A stretch of DNA of 64,000 bases from Alphaproteobacteria bacterium. Its GTDB lineage: Bacteria > Pseudomonadota > Alphaproteobacteria > UBA828. A program made the translations under genes and the position numbers. This document shows, one piece after another, positions 36,850 to 64,000 of the stretch. The stretch spans positions 126,869-190,868 of the forward strand of contig OZ251509.1 of NCBI GenBank assembly GCA_965242855.1. The letters run 5' to 3'. Under the pieces are notes generated by a model. It did no database searches. It worked only from the letters and a program-made list of their open reading frames with translations, and was not told where the DNA came from. How positions within the stretch are numbered: position 1 is the first letter of the stretch; the number at the start of each line of letters is the position of its first letter.

Positions 36850-37782
36850 ATGAACCGCTGGCTTGCCTTGATCATGCTTTGCGGCGCCCTGGCGTTGCCG
36901 GCGCTTCCCGTTCACGCCGACGCGACGGGCGATTTGTTCGAGGCGGCGGAAAGCGGAACCGCTTCCGAAGTGAAGGCCGCGCTCGCTGCCGGCGCGGACC
37001 CCGGCGCGCGCGATAATATCGGCGAAACGCCGCTTCACGCGGCGGCGGGGAACAATGCCAACCCTTCCGTGATTACGGCGTTGATCGAAGGCGGTGCGGA
37101 CCCCGGCGCGCGTGGCAAATTCGGCTACACGCCGCTTCATGATGCGGCGCAAGCCAATTCCAACCCTTCCGTGATAGCGGCATTGATCGAAGGCGGCGCG
37201 GACCTCGGCGCGCGCATGGAAGACGGCGACATGCCACTTCACTTGGCGGCGACGTTCAATTCCAACCCTTCCGTGATAGCGGCGTTGATAGAAGCTGGTG
37301 CGAACCCCGGCGCGCGCAACGAAGACGGCGCAACGCCGCTTCACTTGGCGGCGGGGAACAGTGCTTTCGCCATCAAGGCGTTGATCGAAGGCGGTGCGGA
37401 CCCCGGCGCGCGTAACAAAAAGGGCGAAACGCCGCTTCATAAGGCGATGCGCACTCCCTACCTAATCGTCCGGTTCTTGATTGAGGAGTTGATCGAAGAA
37501 GGCATGTACCAAACCGAACTTTCCGTGTTCCTTTCCGGGGTAGCGGCGTTGATCGAAGCTGGTGCCGACCCAGACGCGCGCAACGAAGACGGCGCAACGC
37601 CGCTTCACTTGGCGGCGGCATACCATTCCAACCCTTCCGCGATTGAGGCGTTGATCAAGTACGGCGCGAACCCCGGCGCGCGTGATTACGACGGCTTCAC
37701 TCCCTTCGATTATGCGCAAGAGAACGACGCCTTGAAGGGAACCGAAGCCTACTGGCTATTGAACGAAGGCCGGTTCGAGTAG
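36850..37782 (+). CDS. Secreted ankyrin-repeat protein (about 7 ANK repeats, Sec signal peptide)
   Basis: MNRWLALIMLCGALALPALPVHA signal; repeated G-TPLH-AA…NPSVI-ALIE-GADPGAR units; nucleotide-level near-tandem repeats. Confidence 0.85.
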   Translation: MNRWLALIMLCGALALPALPVHADATGDLFEAAESGTASEVKAALAAGADPGARDNIGETPLHAAAGNNANPSVITALIEGGADPGARGKFGYTPLHDAAQANSNPSVIAALIEGGADLGARMEDGDMPLHLAATFNSNPSVIAALIEAGANPGARNEDGATPLHLAAGNSAFAIKALIEGGADPGARNKKGETPLHKAMRTPYLIVRFLIEELIEEGMYQTELSVFLSGVAALIEAGADPDARNEDGATPLHLAAAYHSNPSAIEALIKYGANPGARDYDGFTPFDYAQENDALKGTEAYWLLNEGRFE

Positions 37783-37962: not shown

Positions 37963-39636
37963 ATGGACTGCGATTTCGTCGTCGTCGGCGGGGGCACGGC
38001 GGGGTGCGTGCTGGCGCACCGCCTCTCGGCCGACCCGGCGAACCGGGTGACGCTGATCGAGGCCGGCGGCGAGGCGCGCCATCCGGCGATCCGCGTCCCG
38101 CTGATGGCGGGATACGTCTATTTCCTGCGTTCGATCAACTGGAATTACGAGAGCGCGCCCGAGCCCCATCTCGACGGCCGCCGCATCCCCTGGCCGCGCG
38201 GCAAGGTGCTGGGCGGCACCTCGGCGATCAACGGCATGATGTACATGCGCGGCAACCGCCGCGACTACGACGACTGGCGCCGCCGCGGCCTCGAGGGCTG
38301 GGACTACGCGAGCGTGCTCCCCTACTTCAAGCGCGCCGAGGGGCACGGCGCGCGCCGCGACGCCTATCACGGGACGGACGGGCCGCTCGGCGTCGAGCAG
38401 GCGCGCGCGGACAACCCGCTCTACGCGGTCTTCCTGCGCGCCTGCGCGGAACTCGGCCTGCCGCGCAACGACGACTTCAACGGCGCGACGCAGGAGGGCG
38501 TGGGCCGGCAGGATTTCTGCTACCGCCGCGGGCGGCGGGAGGACGCGGGCCATGCCTTCCTGCGGCCGGTGCGCCGGCGCCCCAATCTGCGGGTGCTGAC
38601 CCGCGCCCACGCCGAGCGCCTGCTCTTCGAGGGCCGCCGCGTCACGGGCGTCGCCTGCCGGCGGCGCGGGCGGGCCTGCGCGGTGCGCGCCCGCCGCGCG
38701 GTGGTGCTCGCCTGCGGCACCGTCGGCTCGCCGGCGCTGCTGCAACGCTCGGGTCTCGGCGCACCGGCGCATCTCCGGCCGCTCGGCATCCCCGTCGTCG
38801 CCGAAAGCCCGGAGGTAGGGCGCAACCTGCAGGACCACGCGGGCGTCTACGTCCAATACGCCTGCACGCGGCCGGTCACGCTCTACGGCCTGATGCGCCC
38901 CGACCGGGCGGCCTTGGCCTGCCTGCGCGCTTGGCTCTTCGGCGCCGGCCCGGGCGCCTCGGTCGCGCTGGAGGCCGGCGGCTTCGCCCGCTCGCGCGAG
39001 GGGCTGGAGGCGCCGGACCTGCAACTCACCTTCCTGCCCGGCCTCACGCTCGACGTGACGCGCGCGAAGCAGGGCCGCCACGGCTTCCTCGTCCATTGCT
39101 ACCAGCTCCGCCCCGAGAGCCGCGGCGCGATCCACATCGTCTCCGCCGCCCCGGACGCCGCCCCGGAGATTCGTCCGGACACGCTGGGCGCCGACGCCGA
39201 CCGCCGCGTGGCCCGCGACGCCGTCCGCCTGGCGCGCCGGATCGTGAACGGGGCGCCGTTCGCCCCGTGGCGCGGCGCGGAGATCGCGCCGGGCGCGGGC
39301 GTCCGCACGGACGCGGAGATCGACGCCTGGGTGCGCGGCAACCTCACCACCGTCTGGCACCCGGTCGGCACCTGCCGCATGGGCGCGGACGCGGGCGCCG
39401 TGGTGGACGCGGCCCTCCGGGTGCGCGGCGTCGAGGGGCTGTTCGTGGCGGACGCCTCCGTCATGCCGGCGATCCCCAGCGGCAACACCGCCGCGCCGAC
39501 GATGATGATCGCCGAGAAGGCCGCCGACGCGATCCTCGGCAAGCCGCCGCTCCCGCCGGAGGACCCGGCGGCGCCACCGGCGCGCGCCGAACGAGGAGCG
39601 GTCACGCCTCGGGACGGGCGCCGAAGAGGAGGGTGA
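37963..39636 (+). CDS. GMC-family FAD oxidoreductase (choline dehydrogenase-like)
   Basis: MDCDFVVVGGGTAGCVLAHRLS (GxGxxG), GMC signature …GKVLGGTSAINGMMYMRG…, C-terminal …WHPVGTCRMG…; start chosen at MDCDF (alternatives 37870/37918). Confidence 0.85.
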   Translation: MDCDFVVVGGGTAGCVLAHRLSADPANRVTLIEAGGEARHPAIRVPLMAGYVYFLRSINWNYESAPEPHLDGRRIPWPRGKVLGGTSAINGMMYMRGNRRDYDDWRRRGLEGWDYASVLPYFKRAEGHGARRDAYHGTDGPLGVEQARADNPLYAVFLRACAELGLPRNDDFNGATQEGVGRQDFCYRRGRREDAGHAFLRPVRRRPNLRVLTRAHAERLLFEGRRVTGVACRRRGRACAVRARRAVVLACGTVGSPALLQRSGLGAPAHLRPLGIPVVAESPEVGRNLQDHAGVYVQYACTRPVTLYGLMRPDRAALACLRAWLFGAGPGASVALEAGGFARSREGLEAPDLQLTFLPGLTLDVTRAKQGRHGFLVHCYQLRPESRGAIHIVSAAPDAAPEIRPDTLGADADRRVARDAVRLARRIVNGAPFAPWRGAEIAPGAGVRTDAEIDAWVRGNLTTVWHPVGTCRMGADAGAVVDAALRVRGVEGLFVADASVMPAIPSGNTAAPTMMIAEKAADAILGKPPLPPEDPAAPPARAERGAVTPRDGRRRGG

Positions 39637-53613: not shown

Positions 53614-54561
53614 TCAGCCGCCGGGCGCGGCGGGAAGCAGGCCCTCTTCGCGCATCCAGGCGCAGAGATCGGCGAACATGGCGCGTAGCGGGACGGGCTT
53701 GAAGCCGAGTTCGCGGATCGCCTTGTCGCAGTTCAGGATCTGGGTCCGCTCCATCATGAACCGGACCTCCGGGCTGGCGTCCGGATCGGGTTCGCGCGCC
53801 GGGCGCGGCGGCTTGGCGCCGGTGAGTTCGGCGACGACGCGGGCGGCCTCCGCGAAGCGCGCGACGGCGCCGGCGAGGAGGTAACGCTCGCCGCGCCGGC
53901 CCTTGTGGTAGGCGGCGATGTGGGCCCTGGCCGTCTCGTCGACGTGGCAGAAGCTGCCGCCGCCGGTGCCGACCGTGGCCATGGCACCGCGGGCGATGGC
54001 CTGGACGAAGGGCCCCCAGATCACCCGGTCGTAGGGGCCGACCACGCTGCCCGGATTCACGCACACCGCGTCGAGGCCGGAGGCCGCCGCTTCGAGCACC
54101 ATGTCCTCTGCCGCCTTCTTGGTGCGGAAGTAGTTGATCGGGATGGCGTCCGCGTTGGAGGGCGCGGCCTCGTCGATCTCCACGCCGTCGTGGAGGCCGA
54201 AGGCGGCGCCGGTCGAGGTATGGACGAAGCGCCCGGCGCCTTTCGCCCGCGCCGCCTCGATCACCGCGCGGGTGCCGTCCACGTTGGCGCGGGTCTGGTC
54301 GTCGTCGCCTGCCGCCGCGAAGCTGACGTTGCCGGCGACGTGGAAGACGGCGTCGACGCCCTCCGGCATGGCCCGCGTCACGGACTCGCGGTCCGCCACG
54401 TCGCCCACCGCGAGCGCCGCCGGGAAACGCCGCAGGTAGGTGAGGTCCGAGCGCGCGCGGTGCATCGCCGTCACCGACCAGCCGGCCTCGTCCAGCCGCT
54501 TCACCAGGTTGACGCCGATGAACCCCGAGGCGCCGGTGACGAAGGCGGTCTTCCCGGTCAT
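53614..54561 (-). CDS. NAD(P)-dependent epimerase/dehydratase-family (extended SDR) protein
   Basis: VTGASGFIGVNLVKRL (GxxGxxG), …YFRTKKAAE… (YxxxK). Confidence 0.8.
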   Translation of the reverse strand: MTGKTAFVTGASGFIGVNLVKRLDEAGWSVTAMHRARSDLTYLRRFPAALAVGDVADRESVTRAMPEGVDAVFHVAGNVSFAAAGDDDQTRANVDGTRAVIEAARAKGAGRFVHTSTGAAFGLHDGVEIDEAAPSNADAIPINYFRTKKAAEDMVLEAAASGLDAVCVNPGSVVGPYDRVIWGPFVQAIARGAMATVGTGGGSFCHVDETARAHIAAYHKGRRGERYLLAGAVARFAEAARVVAELTGAKPPRPAREPDPDASPEVRFMMERTQILNCDKAIRELGFKPVPLRAMFADLCAWMREEGLLPAAPGG

Positions 54562-54589
54562 GCGTCTCTCCCCGTTGCGGCGCCGCGGC

Positions 54590-56098
54590 TCACCGCCAGA
54601 CCGGCTTGCCGCTGCCCGACAGCCCGTAGGATTCCCACTTGTCGGTCACCGCCCGCACCACGTCGTCGGCCATGCGGATGCGCGTTCCCCAGGTCCGGCT
54701 CGTCTCGGGCGGGAGCTTGCTCGTCGCGTCGAGGCCGATCTTGGCGCCGAGGCCCGCTTGCGGGCTCGCGAAATCGAGATAGTCGATGGGCGTATTCTCG
54801 ATGATCGCGATGTCGCGCGCCGGGTCCATGCGCGTCGCAACGGCCCACATCACGTCCTTCCAGTCGCGCGCGTCGATGTCGTCGTCCACCACGATCACCC
54901 ATTTCGTATACATGAACTGCCGGAGATAGGACCAGACGGCCATCATGATCCTCCGGGCCTGGCCGGCGTAGGTCTTCCGGATCGCGACCACGGCGATGCG
55001 GTAGCTGCACCCTTCCGGCGGCAACCAGAAATCGACGATCTCGGGGAACTGCTGCGCGAGCAGAGGAACGAAGACCTCGTTGAGCGCCGCGCCGAGGACG
55101 CTCGGCTCGTCCGGCGGGCGACCGGTATAGGTCGAAAGGTAGATCGGGTCGCGCCGCATGGTGATGGCCGAGACGGTGAACACAGGGAAGGGCTCGACCG
55201 CGTTGTAGTAACCGGTGTGGTCGCCGTAGGGGCCCTCGTCGCGGTAGTCGTCCAGGCTGACGTGCCCCTCGATGACGATCTCGGCCTCGGCCGGAACCTC
55301 GAGCGGCACGGTTTTCGCCCGCACCAGCGCGACCTTGGCCCCGCGCAGGAGCCCGGCGAAGCGGTATTCCGAGAGCGTGTCCGGCACCGGCGTCACCGCC
55401 GCCAGGATGGTGCCGGGGTCAGCGCCGATCACCGCCGCGGCGGGGAGCGGCGCGCGCCTCGAAGCCGCCCAGCGCCGGTGCTGTTGGGCGCCGCCCCGGT
55501 GCGCGAGCCAGCGCATCAGCGTCTTGTCGCGCTCCAGCACCTGCATCCGGTAGATGCCGAGGTTGTAATCGTCTTCGCGGGCACCGCCCGGTCCCTTCGT
55601 CACGACCAGCGGCCAGGTGATCAGCGGCGCCGGTTCGCCGGGCCAGCAGGTCTGAATCGGCAGGCGGGAGAGGTCGATCTCCCCGCCGGTGAGCACCACG
55701 TCCTGGGCCGGTCCGTCGCCCACGGTCTTCGGCTTCATCGCCCGCACGGCGTTGAGCAGCGGCAGCATCCCCACGGCCTCGCGCCAGCCGCCCGGCGGCT
55801 CCGGCTGGCGCAGGAAGGCGAGGGTCTCGCCGACCGCGCGGAGGTCGCCGGGCTCCCGGTTCATGCCCCAGGCGACGCGCTCGATCGTTCCGAACAGGTT
55901 GACCAGCACCGGCGCGTCGTAGCGCGCGCCGTCCGCGCCCGTGGCGTTCTCGAAGAGCACGGCCGGCCCGCCTTCCGCGATCAGACGGGTCTGGATCTCG
56001 GTCATTTCGAGATGGGTGGAGACCGGCGCCGAAACCCGCTCGAGCCGGCCAGCGCCCTCCAGGCGGGCGATGAAGTCGCGCAACGATCGATAGGCCAT
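54590..56098 (-). CDS. UbiD-family (prenyl-FMN-dependent) decarboxylase
   Basis: Start [14 protein letters not shown]; about 500 aa with UbiD family blocks (…[10 protein letters not shown]…, …[11 protein letters not shown]…). Confidence 0.85.
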
Positions 56099-56283
56099 GG
56101 GCGCCCCGATCCGCCGGGATGCGCCGGCGCGTCGGGCTCCGCGGGCGCGGGCGGCGGCGCAGAACCGGCACCATTCTACCGCCGCCCGCCGCGGGCGACC
56201 AATCCGCCGGTTGACGGCCCGGAGAGGGGGCGGCATGGTGCGCGCGTCGGGGCGCGGGCGCGCGGGACAGGGCGGCGGAGCGG

Positions 56284-58293
56284 ATGCCTTCCAGAGCGAT
56301 CGAGGAGTCCCGCCCGCGCGCCGATCACGCGGCGCTGGCGAATGCCATCCGCGCGTTGTCGATGGACGCCGTGGAGCGCGCCAAATCCGGCCATCCGGGC
56401 ATGCCGCTCGGCCTCGCCGACGTGGCGACCGTGCTCTTCCGCCGGTTCCTGAAATTCGACCCCTCGCGGCCGCACTGGCCCGATCGGGACCGCTTCGTCC
56501 TCTCGGCCGGCCACGGCTCGATGCTGCTCTACGCGCTGCTCTATCTCACCGGCTACCCGGACATCGACATCGAGGAGATCCGGAACTTCCGACAGCTGGG
56601 CAGCCGGACCGCCGGCCACCCCGAGCGCGGGCTCGCCGCCGGAATCGAGACGACCACGGGACCGCTGGGCCAGGGGCTCGCGAACGCGGTCGGCATGGCG
56701 CTGGCCGAGCGGAACATGGCGGCGCGCTTCGGCGACGACCTGGTGGATCACCGCACCTATGCCGTCGCCGGCGACGGCTGCCTGATGGAGGGGATCAGCC
56801 AGGAGGCAATTTCCCTCGCCGGCCACCTGAAGCTCGACCGCCTGACCATCCTCTACGACAGCAACGGGGTCTCGATCGACGGCCCGACCGGCCTCGCCTC
56901 CTCCGACGATGCCGTGGCCCGCTTCGAGGCCGCGGGCTGGCACGCCCAGCGAGCGGACGGCCACGACCCGGAGGCGATCGATGCGGCGCTCGCCGCCGCC
57001 GCCGCCGCGCCCGCGCCCGCGCTGATCGAGTGCCGCACGGTGATCGGCTATGGAGCGCCGGCCAAGGCGGGGACGGCGGCCTGCCACGGGGCGCCGTTGG
57101 GCACGGGCGAGATCGCCGGTGCGCGCGAGGCGCTGGGCTGGCCGCATCCGCCCTTCCTGGTGCCGCCCGACATTCTCGCCGCCTGGCGCGCCGCCGGCGC
57201 CCGCGGCGCGGCGGTGCGGACGGCGTGGGAGGCGCGCCGCGCCGCGCTGGACGGAAGCGAGCGGGCGGCCTTCGACGCGGCCGTCGCGGGCGGCGTACCG
57301 AGCGCCGTCGGCACCGCGCTCGCCGCGCTCAAGGAACGCCTTCTGGAGGAGCGGCCGACCGTCGCCACGCGGGCCGCGAGCAAGCGGGCGCTCGCCGCGG
57401 CGGCCGACGCGCTGCCCGTCCTGATCGGCGGCTCGGCGGACCTCTCCGATTCCAACGGCGTGAAACCCGCCGGAATGGCGACGATTGCGCCCGGCGATTA
57501 CGGCGGGCGCTACCTCCATTACGGCGTGCGCGAGCACGCCATGGGGGCGATCATGAACGGCATGGCGCTCCACGGCGGCGTCATCCCCTATGGCGGCAGC
57601 TTCCTCGTGTTCACCGATTATTGCCGGCCCGCCCTGCGGCTCTCGGCGTTGATGCGTCTCCGCGTCATCTACGTGATGACCCACGATTCGATCGGCCTCG
57701 GCGAGGATGGCCCGACGCATCAGCCCTGCGAGCATCTCGCCGGCCTCAGGGCGATCCCCAACCTCCTCCTGTTCCGGCCGGCCGACGCGGTCGAGACGAC
57801 GGAGTGCTGGGAATTGGCGCTGGCGAACGCCGAGCGGCCGTCCGTCCTGGTGCTGACGCGCCAAGCGGTGCCCTGCCTGCGCGAGGGCGGCACCGGCAAC
57901 GCCTGCGCGCGCGGAGGGTACGTCCTGCGCGAGGCGTCGGGCGGGCGACCACGGGCGGTCCTGCTCGCGACCGGTTCCGAATGCGCGGTCGCCGCGGAGG
58001 CGCGGCGCACGCTTGAAGCGGACGGCGTCCCGACCCGGCTCGTCTCCCTCCCCTGCTGGGCGCTCTTCGACCAGCAGGACGAAGCCTACCGCCAGGACGT
58101 GCTCGGCGACGCCGGGGCGGTGCGGGTCGCCGTCGAGGCGGCGAGCCCGCTCGGCTGGGACCGCCATGTCGGACCGGCAGGCGCCATGGTGGGCATGTGC
58201 GACTTCGGCGCTTCGGCACCGGCGCAGGACCTCTACGCCCATTTCGGCATCACGGCGGAGGCGGTCGTCGCCGCGGTGCGGGAGCGGTTGTAG
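56284..58293 (+). CDS. tkt: Transketolase
   Basis: …[18 protein letters not shown]…, …[13 protein letters not shown]…, TPP- and pyrimidine-binding domains; 669 aa. Confidence 0.95.
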
Positions 58294-58299
58294 CCGCGG

Positions 58300-59189
58300 G
58301 TGAAAAGTCGCCCGATCGACCTAATCCAGGAGAGCGCCATGATCGCTCAACGCATCGGCTCCTATGTCGAGGTCGCGCCCGGCATCGACATCTACTACGA
58401 GGACGAGGGAGAGGGGACGGCGCTGATCCTCATCCCCGGCTGGACCTTCACGACCAGGGTCTTCGACCATCAATTCGCCGCGTTTTCCGACTCCCATCGG
58501 GTCATTTCGTTCGACCCCCGCAGCCACGGCCGCTCGACGGTGACGAGCGACGGCAACAACTACGCCACCCAGGCCGTCGATCTGGCCAAGCTCCTCGAAC
58601 ATCTGAACGTCGAGAACCCGGTCATCCTGGGCTGGTCCGCGGGGGCGCTGACCGCGTGGCACCATGTCCGCAATCGGGGCACCGACGGGATTCGCGGGTT
58701 CGTCTCGATCGACATGCCGCCGCTCGGGATGAGCTGCGACCGGAGCGACTGGGTCGAGGGCGCGCTCCCCGATCTGGCGGGGTTCTTTCAGGGTGTCCAG
58801 ACCGCGCAGGGCCAGCGCGGCGTCATCACCTGGTATGCCGACAACGTCATGATCGAAGGGGCGATGACGCCGTCATGATCGAAGGGGCGATGACGCCGGA
58901 GACGACCGCCTGGATCGTCGAGCAATCCCTGGCGACGCCGCCGATCGTCGCCGCCAATCTCATCGCCGACGTGTGCTTCGCGAACTATCTGGAAGAGGCG
59001 AAGAGGGTGGACGCGGACGTCCCGGCGCTGTTCTGCGTCGCCACCCATTGGTCGGAGACGGCCAGGCCGTTTCTGGCCAGGCACTGCCCGAACGCTCGCG
59101 TCGAGGCCTTCGGCGGCCACATGATGTTCTGGGAATATTCCGAGAGGTTCAACGCACTCCTCGCGGACTTCCTCGCCACAATCGGCTGA
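58300..59189 (+). pseudogene. Alpha/beta-hydrolase gene disrupted by a perfect 26-bp tandem duplication (58846-58871 = 58872-58897), causing a frameshift
   Basis: Frame A (58300..58878) ends …WYADNVMIEGAMTPS*; frame B continues …VMIEGAMTPETTAWIVEQ… to 59189. Removing one copy of gtcatgatcgaaggggcgatgacgcc restores a single ~290-aa ORF with HGRS/GWSAG nucleophile elbow. Confidence 0.7.
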
Positions 59190-59394
59190 ACGCCGCATGT
59201 CCGCGCCGCTCGATCGAGCCGACGATCCTCTCGTCTCCGGGGGCCGGTACGGTGGGCGAACGCGCATGACGGTCCTTCCGGCAGCTCTCCAATCAAGGCG
59301 CGATCTTGACCGGGAGGGCGTGTCCCGATGGCCTGCGACGTTGTGACGTTCTCTCGCTTTCGGGGCCGGTGAAGCAAGCAGAGGCGTCCGATCC

Positions 59395-59856
59395 GTGAAT
59401 CTGGAGCAGACATTGAGGAATGCGGTCGGCCGCCGCCGCTCCGGTCAACTGGACAACGAGGCGCAGGTAAAGCACGCAGTCATACTGCCGATCCCTGCAT
59501 GCGTTGGAGTGGGGCTACGCCGATTCTGGACCGGTCAAGGCCGAGTATTCGCAGGATCCGGCCGCGTTGACTACGCGCACCAAGATAGCACCTCAAGCAC
59601 TTCAGAATCGTTAGAGATTGTTGAAGGTGCACATGAAAAGACAAGCAAGTCGTCTTCGCAACTCATACAAGGTAATGCGAAGAGCGGGGAGATACCTCAA
59701 GACATTGTGCGCGATTTGATGCACGTAATATTGGAGACACCTGGACTATTAAACGAGAAAACCATTCTTTATTTGGAAAGCAAAAAGAATTCCGTGGGAA
59801 CAGAGTTGCCCCTTCCCTGTGATTCGAAAAATCTCGGAATGAGCGAAAATCAGTGA
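59395..59856 (+). CDS. Orphan ORF in an AT-rich island (hypothetical; possibly a decayed fragment)
   Basis: Region about 59560-59940 is much more AT-rich than surroundings; ORF has no recognisable domain. Confidence 0.2.
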   Translation: MNLEQTLRNAVGRRRSGQLDNEAQVKHAVILPIPACVGVGLRRFWTGQGRVFAGSGRVDYAHQDSTSSTSESLEIVEGAHEKTSKSSSQLIQGNAKSGEIPQDIVRDLMHVILETPGLLNEKTILYLESKKNSVGTELPLPCDSKNLGMSENQ

Positions 59857-60230
59857 GTATAACCGGTAATGGACGACAAAAACATATGCCGAGCGGTGGT
59901 ATGTATGCAAAGAGTAGTGGAAGAAGCATCATCGTCATAATTACGAGAAACTAGCCGAGTGGAGCGAGTCGTTGATGGCTGTCGCAGACGATCCCAAAGC
60001 GAGGGATTGTTTGGCACGCATAGCGTACCGGCTTTCTGCCTGTGCCGACAAGTACGAGTCGTGAATCCGCTGTTCAGCGTGGAATGTCGACTCCCCATTG
60101 GCGGGCGCGCCCTTTCCTTCCTTCCTGCGGCTTGGAACACGAGCGGATCCGGGTTACGGTCCGCCCGCGTCGGCCGCCTCGCCAAGTTCGAGGCATCCGG
60201 GCCGAGCGGCGTATCGGGAGCGGAGGGAGC

Positions 60231-61235
<1,005 letters not shown>

Positions 61236-61237
61236 CG

Positions 61238-62455
61238 GTGCCGGCCGCGCGGACGTTCCGCTCTCTCGACGATATCGAGGTCACCGGCAAGCGCGTCCTC
61301 GTCCGGGTCGACCTCAACGTGCCGATGCGTGAGGAGGCGGTGGGCGATACCACCCGCATCGACCGGGTGGCGCCGACCTTGGCCGAGCTGGCGGACAGGC
61401 GCGCGCGGGTCGTCGCCATGTCCCATTTCGGCCGGCCGCGGGGCAAGGCGGTCGCCGCCATGTCGCTGGCGCCGCTCCGGGCACCGCTTTCCCGCGCGCT
61501 CGGCGGCCGGCCGGTCCGTTTCGCCCCCGACTGCATCGGCGCCGAGGCCGCCGCCGCCGTGGAGTCGCTCGCGCCCGGTGGCGTCGCCCTCCTGGAGAAC
61601 CTGCGCTTCCACGAGGGCGAGGAGGCGAACGATCCGGGCTTCGCCGCCGCCCTCGCCGCCCTCGCCGACGTCTACGTCAACGACGCCTTCTCGGCCGCGC
61701 ACCGCGCCCATGCCTCGACGACCGCCGTGGCGGCGCGCCTGCCGAGCGCGGCCGGGCGTCTCATGCAGGCCGAGCTGGAAACCTTGAGCGAGGCCTTTCG
61801 CGACTCCGCACGGCCCGTCGTCGCCGTCGTGGGCGGCGCCAAGGTCTCGACCAAGCTCACGCTTCTCACCAACCTGACCGAGCGGGCCGATTCCCTGGTC
61901 GTGGGCGGCGGGATGGCGAACACCTTCCTCCAGGCACAGGGGTTCCCGGTCGGCAAATCGCTCTGCGAACCCGCCCTCGCGGCGGACGCGCGCCGGATCA
62001 TGCGCGCCGCCGCGGACAGGGGGTGCGACATCCTGCTGCCGCCGGACGCGATGGTCGCGCGGCGGTTCGAGGAGAATGGCGAAGCCCGCGCGGTGCCCGC
62101 CGACGCGGTGCCCGAGGACGGAATGATCCTCGACTTGGGACCTCGCGCCGCGGCCCGGATCGAGGAACGCCTCGCCGCCGCACGCACCCTGCTGTGGAAC
62201 GGCCCGCTCGGGGCCTTCGAGATCCCGCCCTTCGACGGCGCGACGGTCGCTTGCGCCCGCGCGGCCGCGCGTCTGACCCGGGCCGGGGGGTTGCGCTCCA
62301 TCGCCGGCGGCGGCGACACGATCGCGGCGCTCCGCCACGCCGGGGTCTTCGACTCCTTCAGCTACGTCTCGACCGCCGGCGGCGCCTTTCTGCACTGGCT
62401 CGAGGGGCGGACGCTGCCCGGTGTCGCCGCGCTGGCGATCGAAGGCGTCGCATGA
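61238..62455 (+). CDS. pgk: Phosphoglycerate kinase (GTG start)
   Basis: …RTFRSLDDIEVTGKRVLVRVDLNVP…, …GGGMANTFL…, …STAGGAFLHWLEG…. Confidence 0.95.
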   Translation: MPAARTFRSLDDIEVTGKRVLVRVDLNVPMREEAVGDTTRIDRVAPTLAELADRRARVVAMSHFGRPRGKAVAAMSLAPLRAPLSRALGGRPVRFAPDCIGAEAAAAVESLAPGGVALLENLRFHEGEEANDPGFAAALAALADVYVNDAFSAAHRAHASTTAVAARLPSAAGRLMQAELETLSEAFRDSARPVVAVVGGAKVSTKLTLLTNLTERADSLVVGGGMANTFLQAQGFPVGKSLCEPALAADARRIMRAAADRGCDILLPPDAMVARRFEENGEARAVPADAVPEDGMILDLGPRAAARIEERLAAARTLLWNGPLGAFEIPPFDGATVACARAAARLTRAGGLRSIAGGGDTIAALRHAGVFDSFSYVSTAGGAFLHWLEGRTLPGVAALAIEGVA

Positions 62456-62982
62456 CCGAACCGGCGCGGCGGCAGCCGGCGATCGTGGCGCGTGAGCCGC
62501 GCCCGGCGGTCGCGACGCGCGAGCCGCGTCCGGCGATTATCGTGCATGACCTCCGCCATGCCGAGGGCGCCTTGCGAGCGGCGCGGGCGACCGGCGTCCC
62601 CGTCACCCTGTGGTCGGCGCCGGGCGCCAGCGACTACGCAGGGCTCGGCTTCCTCGGCGCCGTCTTCGACCAGGCGGCGGCGGCGGTCCCCGAAGCCGTC
62701 CACGACGTGGTCGTCGATTGCGGCGCGAGCGTCGTCCTCGCCCACGAAGCGCTCCGGCGCGGCTTCCTCGGCGTGGCCTTCTCCGGCCGCGGGCGGATGC
62801 GCGCGGCGCTCGAAGCCGTCGCCGCCGCACAAGGCGGGCGGCTGAGCGCGGCGCGGCCGGGGCGCAGCGCCCTCGATCTGGGCCGGTCCGAAACGCCCGA
62901 GCGGGACTGCGCCGCCTGGCTGGCGGCAAAGGCGAAGCGGCGCATCGGCTCTAGCAAAAAGGCGGCGTCTCCGTCAGGATAG
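62452..62982 (+). CDS. Hypothetical protein between pgk and fba (ATGA-coupled to pgk)
   Basis: 176-aa ORF, no recognisable motif; position conserved-looking (coupled start). Confidence 0.4.
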   Translation: MTEPARRQPAIVAREPRPAVATREPRPAIIVHDLRHAEGALRAARATGVPVTLWSAPGASDYAGLGFLGAVFDQAAAAVPEAVHDVVVDCGASVVLAHEALRRGFLGVAFSGRGRMRAALEAVAAAQGGRLSAARPGRSALDLGRSETPERDCAAWLAAKAKRRIGSSKKAASPSG

Positions 62983-62986
62983 CAGC

Positions 62987-63910
62987 ATGAAGATCACCCG
63001 GCGCGTCGGGAAAATCCTCTCCTGGTACGAGAGCGACAACCCCGGCACCAAGGCCAATCTTGCCCGCATTCTGATGCACGGGCGGCTCGGCGGCACCGGG
63101 AGGCTGGTCGTCCTGCCGGTGGACCAGGGCTTCGAGCACGGGCCGGCCCGGAGTTTCGCGCCGAACCCGCCGGCCTATGACCCGCATTACCATTGGCGGC
63201 TCGCAATCGACGCCGGGCTCAGCGCCTTCGCGAGCCCGCTCGGCATGATCGAGGCGGGCGCCGACAGCTTCGCCGGCGCGATTCCGACGATCCTCAAGGT
63301 CAACAGCGCCAATTCCCTCGCTTCGACCAAGGACCAGGCGGTGACGGCGTCCGTGCGGGACGCGCTGCGGCTGGGCTGCGCCGCCATCGGCTTCACCATC
63401 TATCCCGGGTCCGAGCACCAGTACGAGATGATCGAGGAGATCCGGGAACTCGCCGCCGAGGCGAAGGCGCACGGCCTCGCGGTGGTCGTCTGGTCCTACC
63501 CCCGCGGCGGCGCGCTTTCGAAGGAGGGCGAGACGGCGCTCGACGTGGTGGCCTACGCGGCCCACATCGCGGCCCTGGCGGGCGCCCATGTCATCAAGGT
63601 GAAGCCGCCGACGGCCCATCTCGAACAGGAGGCCGCTGCCGCTTCCTACCGCGCGGGTGGCATCGGCGAAGGCGGGCTCCCGGCGCGGATCGCCCACGTC
63701 ATGCGGGCGGCCTTCGGCGGGCGCCGGCTGGTGGTCTTCTCCGGCGGCGCCGCGAAGGACCTGAACGGGCTCTACGAGGAGGTCCGCGCGATCCACGCCG
63801 GCGGGGGCAGCGGCTCGATCATCGGCCGCAACAGCTTCCAGCGCCCCCGCGACGAGGCCCTCGCCATGCTCGATACCATCACCGGCATCTACCGGGGCGG
63901 GAGAGGCTGA
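62987..63910 (+). CDS. fba: Class I fructose-bisphosphate aldolase
   Basis: MKITRRVGKILSWYESDNPGTKANLARILMHGRLGGTGRLVVLPVDQGFEHGP… characteristic of bacterial class I FBA; Schiff-base Lys in …AHVIKVKPP…. Confidence 0.9.
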   Translation: MKITRRVGKILSWYESDNPGTKANLARILMHGRLGGTGRLVVLPVDQGFEHGPARSFAPNPPAYDPHYHWRLAIDAGLSAFASPLGMIEAGADSFAGAIPTILKVNSANSLASTKDQAVTASVRDALRLGCAAIGFTIYPGSEHQYEMIEEIRELAAEAKAHGLAVVVWSYPRGGALSKEGETALDVVAYAAHIAALAGAHVIKVKPPTAHLEQEAAAASYRAGGIGEGGLPARIAHVMRAAFGGRRLVVFSGGAAKDLNGLYEEVRAIHAGGGSGSIIGRNSFQRPRDEALAMLDTITGIYRGGRG

Positions 63911-64000
63911 GTGGTGGCGATATCCCCTCTCACGGTGGACGAGAGACTCGACGCCACCGCGGCGCCAAGCGCCATGCTCCACATCTGTCTGACCGGGGCC

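Follow-up and report, generated by a model that had tools for sequence, protein, structure and literature searches.

The 64,000-nt stretch of DNA analysed here (the window) carries, between a transketolase gene and the gene for glyceraldehyde-3-phosphate dehydrogenase (GAPDH), an alpha/beta-hydrolase gene that is interrupted by a tandem duplication of 26 bp. The genes and reading frames at this locus are listed below, together with the relatives (L001, L003 and L083, described further on) in which each neighbour is kept.

56284..58293, plus strand: transketolase gene, upstream of the hydrolase; neighbour kept in L001, L003 and L083
58339..59189, plus strand: disrupted alpha/beta-hydrolase gene, 851 nt, or 825 nt (274 codons and a stop) with one copy of the repeat removed; recognised from Pfam, homologues and an AGGAG motif
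58339..58878, plus strand: 5' reading frame of the hydrolase, 179 aa, ending in NVMIEGAMTPS and the stop TGA 58876-58878
58875..59189, plus strand: 3' reading frame of the hydrolase, 104 aa from ATG 58875, carrying His252 (codon 59118-59120)
60232..61235, plus strand: GAPDH gene (gap), downstream; neighbour kept in L001 and L083

Both a scan of the sequence and Tandem Repeats Finder (period 26, 2.1 copies, 100% matches, score 108) bear out the perfect duplication that the initial annotation had placed at 58846-58897. The 26-mer GTCATGATCGAAGGGGCGATGACGCC stands twice in direct succession, and occurs at no other site in the 64-kb window on either strand.

58846..58871, plus strand: copy 1 of the 26-bp unit, encoding V170-P178 (VMIEGAMTP) in the original frame
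58872..58897, plus strand: copy 2 of the 26-bp unit, the extra copy, missing in all relatives

Identity at period 26 spans 58845-58898, i.e. 54 nt, which leaves a 2-nt flanking microhomology (CG); the register is ambiguous by 2 nt within this interval, and calling copy 2 the new one is arbitrary. At 71% G+C, a perfect run of this period would be expected by chance some 1e-10 times per window (about 8e-11), and perfect runs over all periods from 10 to 100 about 7e-9 times. Among tandem duplications with a period of 10-200, just two in the 64 kb are perfect over whole units: the 26-bp unit, and a 12-bp unit, CGCCGCCCCGGA, which is present twice at 39144-39167 and whose length keeps the frame.

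The consequences for the reading frame are those of a tandem-duplication frameshift pseudogene: the 26 added nucleotides, not a multiple of three and 100% identical to their neighbour, shift the frame by +2 and bring in a premature TGA two codons into copy 2. As first described, the two halves of the gene lie in different frames, the 5' part stopping at this TGA and the 3' part reading through to the stop that ends at 59189, and the ATG from which the 3' frame is counted overlaps the premature stop as ATGA (58875-58878). Deleting either copy restores 274 continuous codons. The continuity predicted for the one-copy gene by the initial annotation is thus confirmed, but the length of about 290 aa and the start at 58300 given along with it are not: the true start is almost certainly ATG 58339 and not the mechanical GTG 58300, 13 codons upstream, since AGGAG lies 6 nt before this ATG and the homologues begin at the same residue, and the repaired protein is therefore one of 274 aa. 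The nucleophile Ser100 (codon 58636-58638) remains in the 179-aa fragment, from which the catalytic histidine is missing; the frameshift would thereby separate Ser100 from His252 in the 104-aa fragment, and we infer that activity would be lost. In a public collection of ~15 billion proteins, the exact 179-aa and 104-aa products are both present, on one and the same NCBI/ENA contig (3,564,170 bp) only. As they were deposited separately, the public record treats the disrupted hydrolase as two genes.

The identity of the gene is well founded. Against Pfam, the repaired protein matches Abhydrolase_1 (PF00561, 58.7 bits with a cut-off of 25.8, 9e-16) and Abhydrolase_6 (PF12697, 50.6 bits with a cut-off of 26.3, 5e-13), whilst a search of NCBIfam returned no model above cut-off for it, and it is collinear from end to end with homologues of 273-276 aa at up to 95% identity. 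The claim of an alpha/beta hydrolase with a GWSAG elbow is upheld by these Pfam matches and by the family alignment of 112 sequences, in which W99, S100 and G102 of the elbow are invariant, as is H252 within GGH. The canonical acid after strand 7, at column 227, is more variable (E in 47, D in 34, N in 14, A in 7 and T in 6 of the 112); Asp or Glu is found here in about 72% of the family, with Thr in the window and Ala in the nearest relative, P0001. D125, invariant and positioned after strand 6, could act as an alternative catalytic acid. The Thr at residue 227 might suggest that the gene had died ahead of the duplication; we rejected it as evidence of this, given the variability of column 227 in the family and the invariance of D125. 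P0001 shares 95% identity with the repaired protein, and in its confident AlphaFold model (pLDDT 93.8) the duplicated codons V170-P178 correspond to the end of the cap-domain helix 156-171 and the loop that follows it.

The initial annotation had proposed looking for single-copy sequence in orthologues, and this is what the relatives contain. L001, an ENA metagenome scaffold, is the closest relative found (94-95% nt identity); its genes follow the order seen in the window (transketolase, hydrolase, GAPDH, PGK), and the 26-bp unit stands there exactly once, with identical sequence. Exactly one unit each is likewise present in L083, a second ENA scaffold, in L084, a Logan contig that encodes P0123, and in L003 (OZ241738.1, an alphaproteobacterial MAG chromosome, 90% nt identity). 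L001, L083 and L003 are syntenic with the window (90-95% nt), and L084 is a short contig, judged by its flanks, which align with the window. Further afield, the repaired protein is matched by tblastn without interruption at all 80 genome loci kept, the best locus among GTDB species representatives reaching 89% aa identity. Exact scans of JGI metagenome contigs gave 0 matches for the duplication junction and 0 for the single-copy sequence, and are uninformative. In the relatives, the single unit is ordinary coding sequence with no multi-copy repeat tract. Considering that every relative has one copy, the ancestral state is a single copy, and only the window sequence has the second.

The family as a whole is spread over several phyla. 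Among MAGs (loci L003-L082), identity to the hydrolase is unusually high across phyla: 81-89% in Alphaproteobacteria, 75-78% in Vicinamibacteria/Acidobacteriota, 70-72% in the acidimicrobiian 'Candidatus Spongiisocius', and 81% in one gammaproteobacterial MAG. The genomic context of the gene differs in L002 and L004. Taken together, this high cross-phylum identity and the differing context suggest that the hydrolase may have been exchanged horizontally within a shared, probably sponge-associated habitat. Several metagenomic members of the family (P0044, P0048, P0054, P0060, P0074 and P0108) are truncated or run into unrelated sequence at differing positions; judging from these sequences, the breaks look like independent frameshifts or assembly errors in other samples, and none is at the 26-bp site.

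Other parts of the window also differ between relatives or are repetitive. Just 3' of the hydrolase stop, a 23-bp segment (59269-59291) is present in the window and absent from L001. Beyond it, between the hydrolase stop (59189) and gap (60232), lies a spacer of roughly 1 kb, whose G+C content falls to 44-56% at 59400-60050, as compared with 71% for the genome. The alignment with L001 stops at 59573-60079, whilst that with L083 and L084, at 74%, reaches 59855, the stretch 59856-59973 being missing from both. No Rfam matches were found over 54000-64000, nor any Pfam matches for the ORFs of this spacer, including a 153-aa ORF (59395-59856) without a family. The highest-scoring repeat of the window is a 102-bp unit in 4.5 copies (36990-37439), which arises because a 310-aa ORF (36850-37782, plus strand) with a signal-like N-terminus encodes about seven ankyrin-like repeats of 34 aa (GADPGARxxxGxTPLHxAA...NPSVIxALIE); secreted proteins with such repeats are a typical feature of sponge symbionts. 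Finally, a small ORF after pgk contains a 27-bp tandem repeat (62476-62537, 2.3 copies, 82% matches). The window is one 27-bp unit longer than L001 at 62487, an in-frame gap, and gain or loss of repeat units therefore does occur in this lineage.

When did the 26-bp duplication take place? With L003 as the outgroup, the hydrolase gene of the window has nine private substitutions, six synonymous and three non-synonymous, and in the part beyond the repeat, which is now out of frame, the changes specific to the window are four synonymous and two non-synonymous. Relative to L001, dN/dS is 0.36 for the whole gene and 0.25 downstream of the repeat, and the out-of-frame 3' part has no further stops or indels. 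On this substitution pattern, the gene is one that has been under purifying selection until essentially the present. As the 3' part has not decayed, the duplication is either very recent or not real; the 'very recent' event of the initial annotation is consistent with this, and so is an artefact. In about 5.3 kb of sequence alignable with L001, no difference other than the 26-bp insertion breaks a frame, and the local sequence is therefore not generally error-ridden.

An artefact of assembly, polishing or consensus building is the alternative that deserves the most attention. In that case the gene would be intact in the organism, with a single copy of the unit, and the doubling would have been introduced while the sequence was built, for example through an untrimmed 26-nt overlap or a local re-assembly error. 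The perfect identity of the copies, the undamaged remainder of the gene and the low downstream dN/dS are what such an error would leave behind, and the single copy in every relative, the confinement of the truncated products to one contig and the lack of the junction in the JGI contigs (from which the single-copy sequence is equally missing) point the same way. Set against this is the nature of the data: the source is a single contig of 3.56 Mb, which suggests long accurate reads, and such reads typically err by homopolymer indels of 1-2 nt and not by clean 26-nt duplications. Nor does the sequence contain another frame-breaking indel in the stretch comparable with L001, or another period-26 duplication in the 64 kb, and a microhomology and the foot of an inverted repeat mark the boundaries of the duplication, in keeping with biological slippage. 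We therefore regard an artefact as rather unlikely, though a serious contender. Since every relative examined is single-copy, the better explanation is an ordinary and very recent inactivating mutation: a spontaneous tandem duplication in the lineage or population behind the assembly, which probably turned the hydrolase gene, an accessory one, into a fresh pseudogene.

How could such a duplication have come about? It would have struck a previously intact, selectively maintained gene, most likely through replication slippage or template switching at the 2-nt microhomology CG. In the ancestral sequence, GACAACG and GACGCCG stand 26 nt apart, identical at five of seven positions and with the 3' CG in common. 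A repeat search also revealed an inverted repeat of 13 nt, 12 of them complementary, with the following arms.

58818..58830, plus strand: 5' arm of the 13-nt inverted repeat
58860..58872, plus strand: 3' arm of the 13-nt inverted repeat, ending exactly at the duplication boundary and recurring at 58886-58898

On the minus strand of the single-copy sequence, this inverted repeat folds into a hairpin of -16.9 kcal/mol (z = -2.2); the plus-strand fold has a z of -0.4, and the hairpin signal is modest to marginal. We posit that replication might have stalled at this 13-bp hairpin, whose 3' arm lies at the boundary, and that slipped re-pairing at the microhomology might then have produced the exact duplication, a route that is plausible and unproven. 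A second candidate driver, the 6-bp inverted repeat within the unit itself (CGTCAT/ATGACG), was unsupported, its fold being no better than that of shuffled sequences (z = +0.35).

Could the two copies instead be one position of a switch? In a system resembling phase variation, the duplication would be gained and precisely lost often, and ON cells with one copy would coexist with OFF cells with two. A perfect tandem duplication can revert precisely via slippage or recombination between its copies, and here the gene is otherwise fully intact, so that one deletion would restore it. Any two-copy duplication is, however, reversible in principle, and reversibility alone is therefore no proof of a switch. 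Copy number at the site is constant across the four close and 80 wider relatives, only two copies are present, and there is no repeat tract conserved across the relatives. The product, moreover, looks like a generic cytoplasmic hydrolase and not like a surface protein or part of a restriction-modification system, and to our knowledge generic cytoplasmic hydrolases are a class not usually under phase variation. A precedent does exist in Streptococcus pneumoniae, where intra-ORF duplications in cap3A, cap8E and tts lead to high-frequency phase variation (Waite et al. 2001, 2003, as cited in PMC4022640). Nonetheless, we hold a switch of this kind to be highly improbable at the hydrolase locus. 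The three options put forward initially (recent mutation, switch or artefact) are in this way narrowed and not closed, with nothing in support of a dedicated switch.

A working enzyme might also persist despite the duplication, either as one chain with a 9-aa insertion, made by ribosomal frameshifting, or as two fragments made separately and then reassembled. The overlap of the premature TGA with the in-frame ATG of the 3' part (58875-58877) is an arrangement that can support termination-reinitiation, and in the model the break falls in a cap-domain loop between helices 156-171 and 178-189, outside the core sheet. Yet this ATGA simply arises from reading the original V-M-I codons in another frame, and ATG 58875 is not preceded by a well-spaced Shine-Dalgarno sequence, the nearest candidate (AAGGGG) lying 15 nt upstream. 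Programmed -1 ribosomal frameshifting was discarded too, as there is no in-frame slippery heptamer (X_XXY_YYZ) anywhere in the 5' frame, and in none of the relatives is the gene split, or lengthened by an insertion, at the 26-bp site. From the sequence, an active product of the two-copy allele seems unlikely, and we find such a persisting enzyme barely credible. Perhaps the boldest reading would have the two-copy allele as one state of a reversible switch in a symbiont population, or as a two-piece hydrolase that is made by ATGA-coupled re-initiation and reassembles across the cap-domain loop; the gene would then be regulated or split, not dead, but we see this as a very distant prospect.

Returning to a fresh pseudogene as the preferred explanation, the implications are modest. 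Beyond annotation, where the neighbouring 'genes' of 179 and 104 aa should be merged into a single disrupted alpha/beta-hydrolase gene, the duplication has little wider meaning, and the site is a handy check on the quality of the assembly consensus. If real, it captures gene loss at its first step, in an uncultured alphaproteobacterium with sponge-associated lineages among its relatives; the hydrolase family affected is in other respects well conserved and has a wide distribution among such metagenome-assembled genomes.

Both the protein and the mutation have counterparts in known systems. A Foldseek search with the P0001 model returned chloroperoxidase F, bromoperoxidase A2 and the P. fluorescens aryl esterase (TM 0.80-0.85), and the model superposes on 1a8s, 1brt, 1va4 and 1hkh; the hydrolase is accordingly modelled as a member of the cofactor-free haloperoxidase/aryl-esterase structural class, to which the perhydrolases also belong. 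It has in common with this class the same fold, with a helical cap placed between strand 6 and strand 7, as well as a G-x-S-x-G nucleophile elbow with an invariant Ser and a GGH motif whose His is invariant. On the other hand, identity to the class is just 20-25%, and residue 227 is Thr here instead of the canonical acid. As for the mutation, it is of an ordinary and already well-known kind. The pneumococcal capsule genes discussed in PMC4022640 are similar in that an intra-ORF duplication of tens of bases turns a gene off and its precise loss would restore it; as far as that account goes, they differ from the hydrolase in their recurrent gain and loss, their population heterogeneity and their selectable phenotype, none of which is in evidence here. 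A close parallel comes from lrp of Xenorhabdus nematophila: tandem duplications of 26-116 bp have been documented there as one class of the spontaneous mutations that abolish function (PMC6786866). The hydrolase duplication falls in the same size class and is likewise a perfect head-to-tail copy within an ORF, with frameshift and truncation, arising de novo in an otherwise intact gene. Whilst the lrp duplications were seen to arise in experimental populations under selection, what we have for the hydrolase is a single snapshot, from one assembly.
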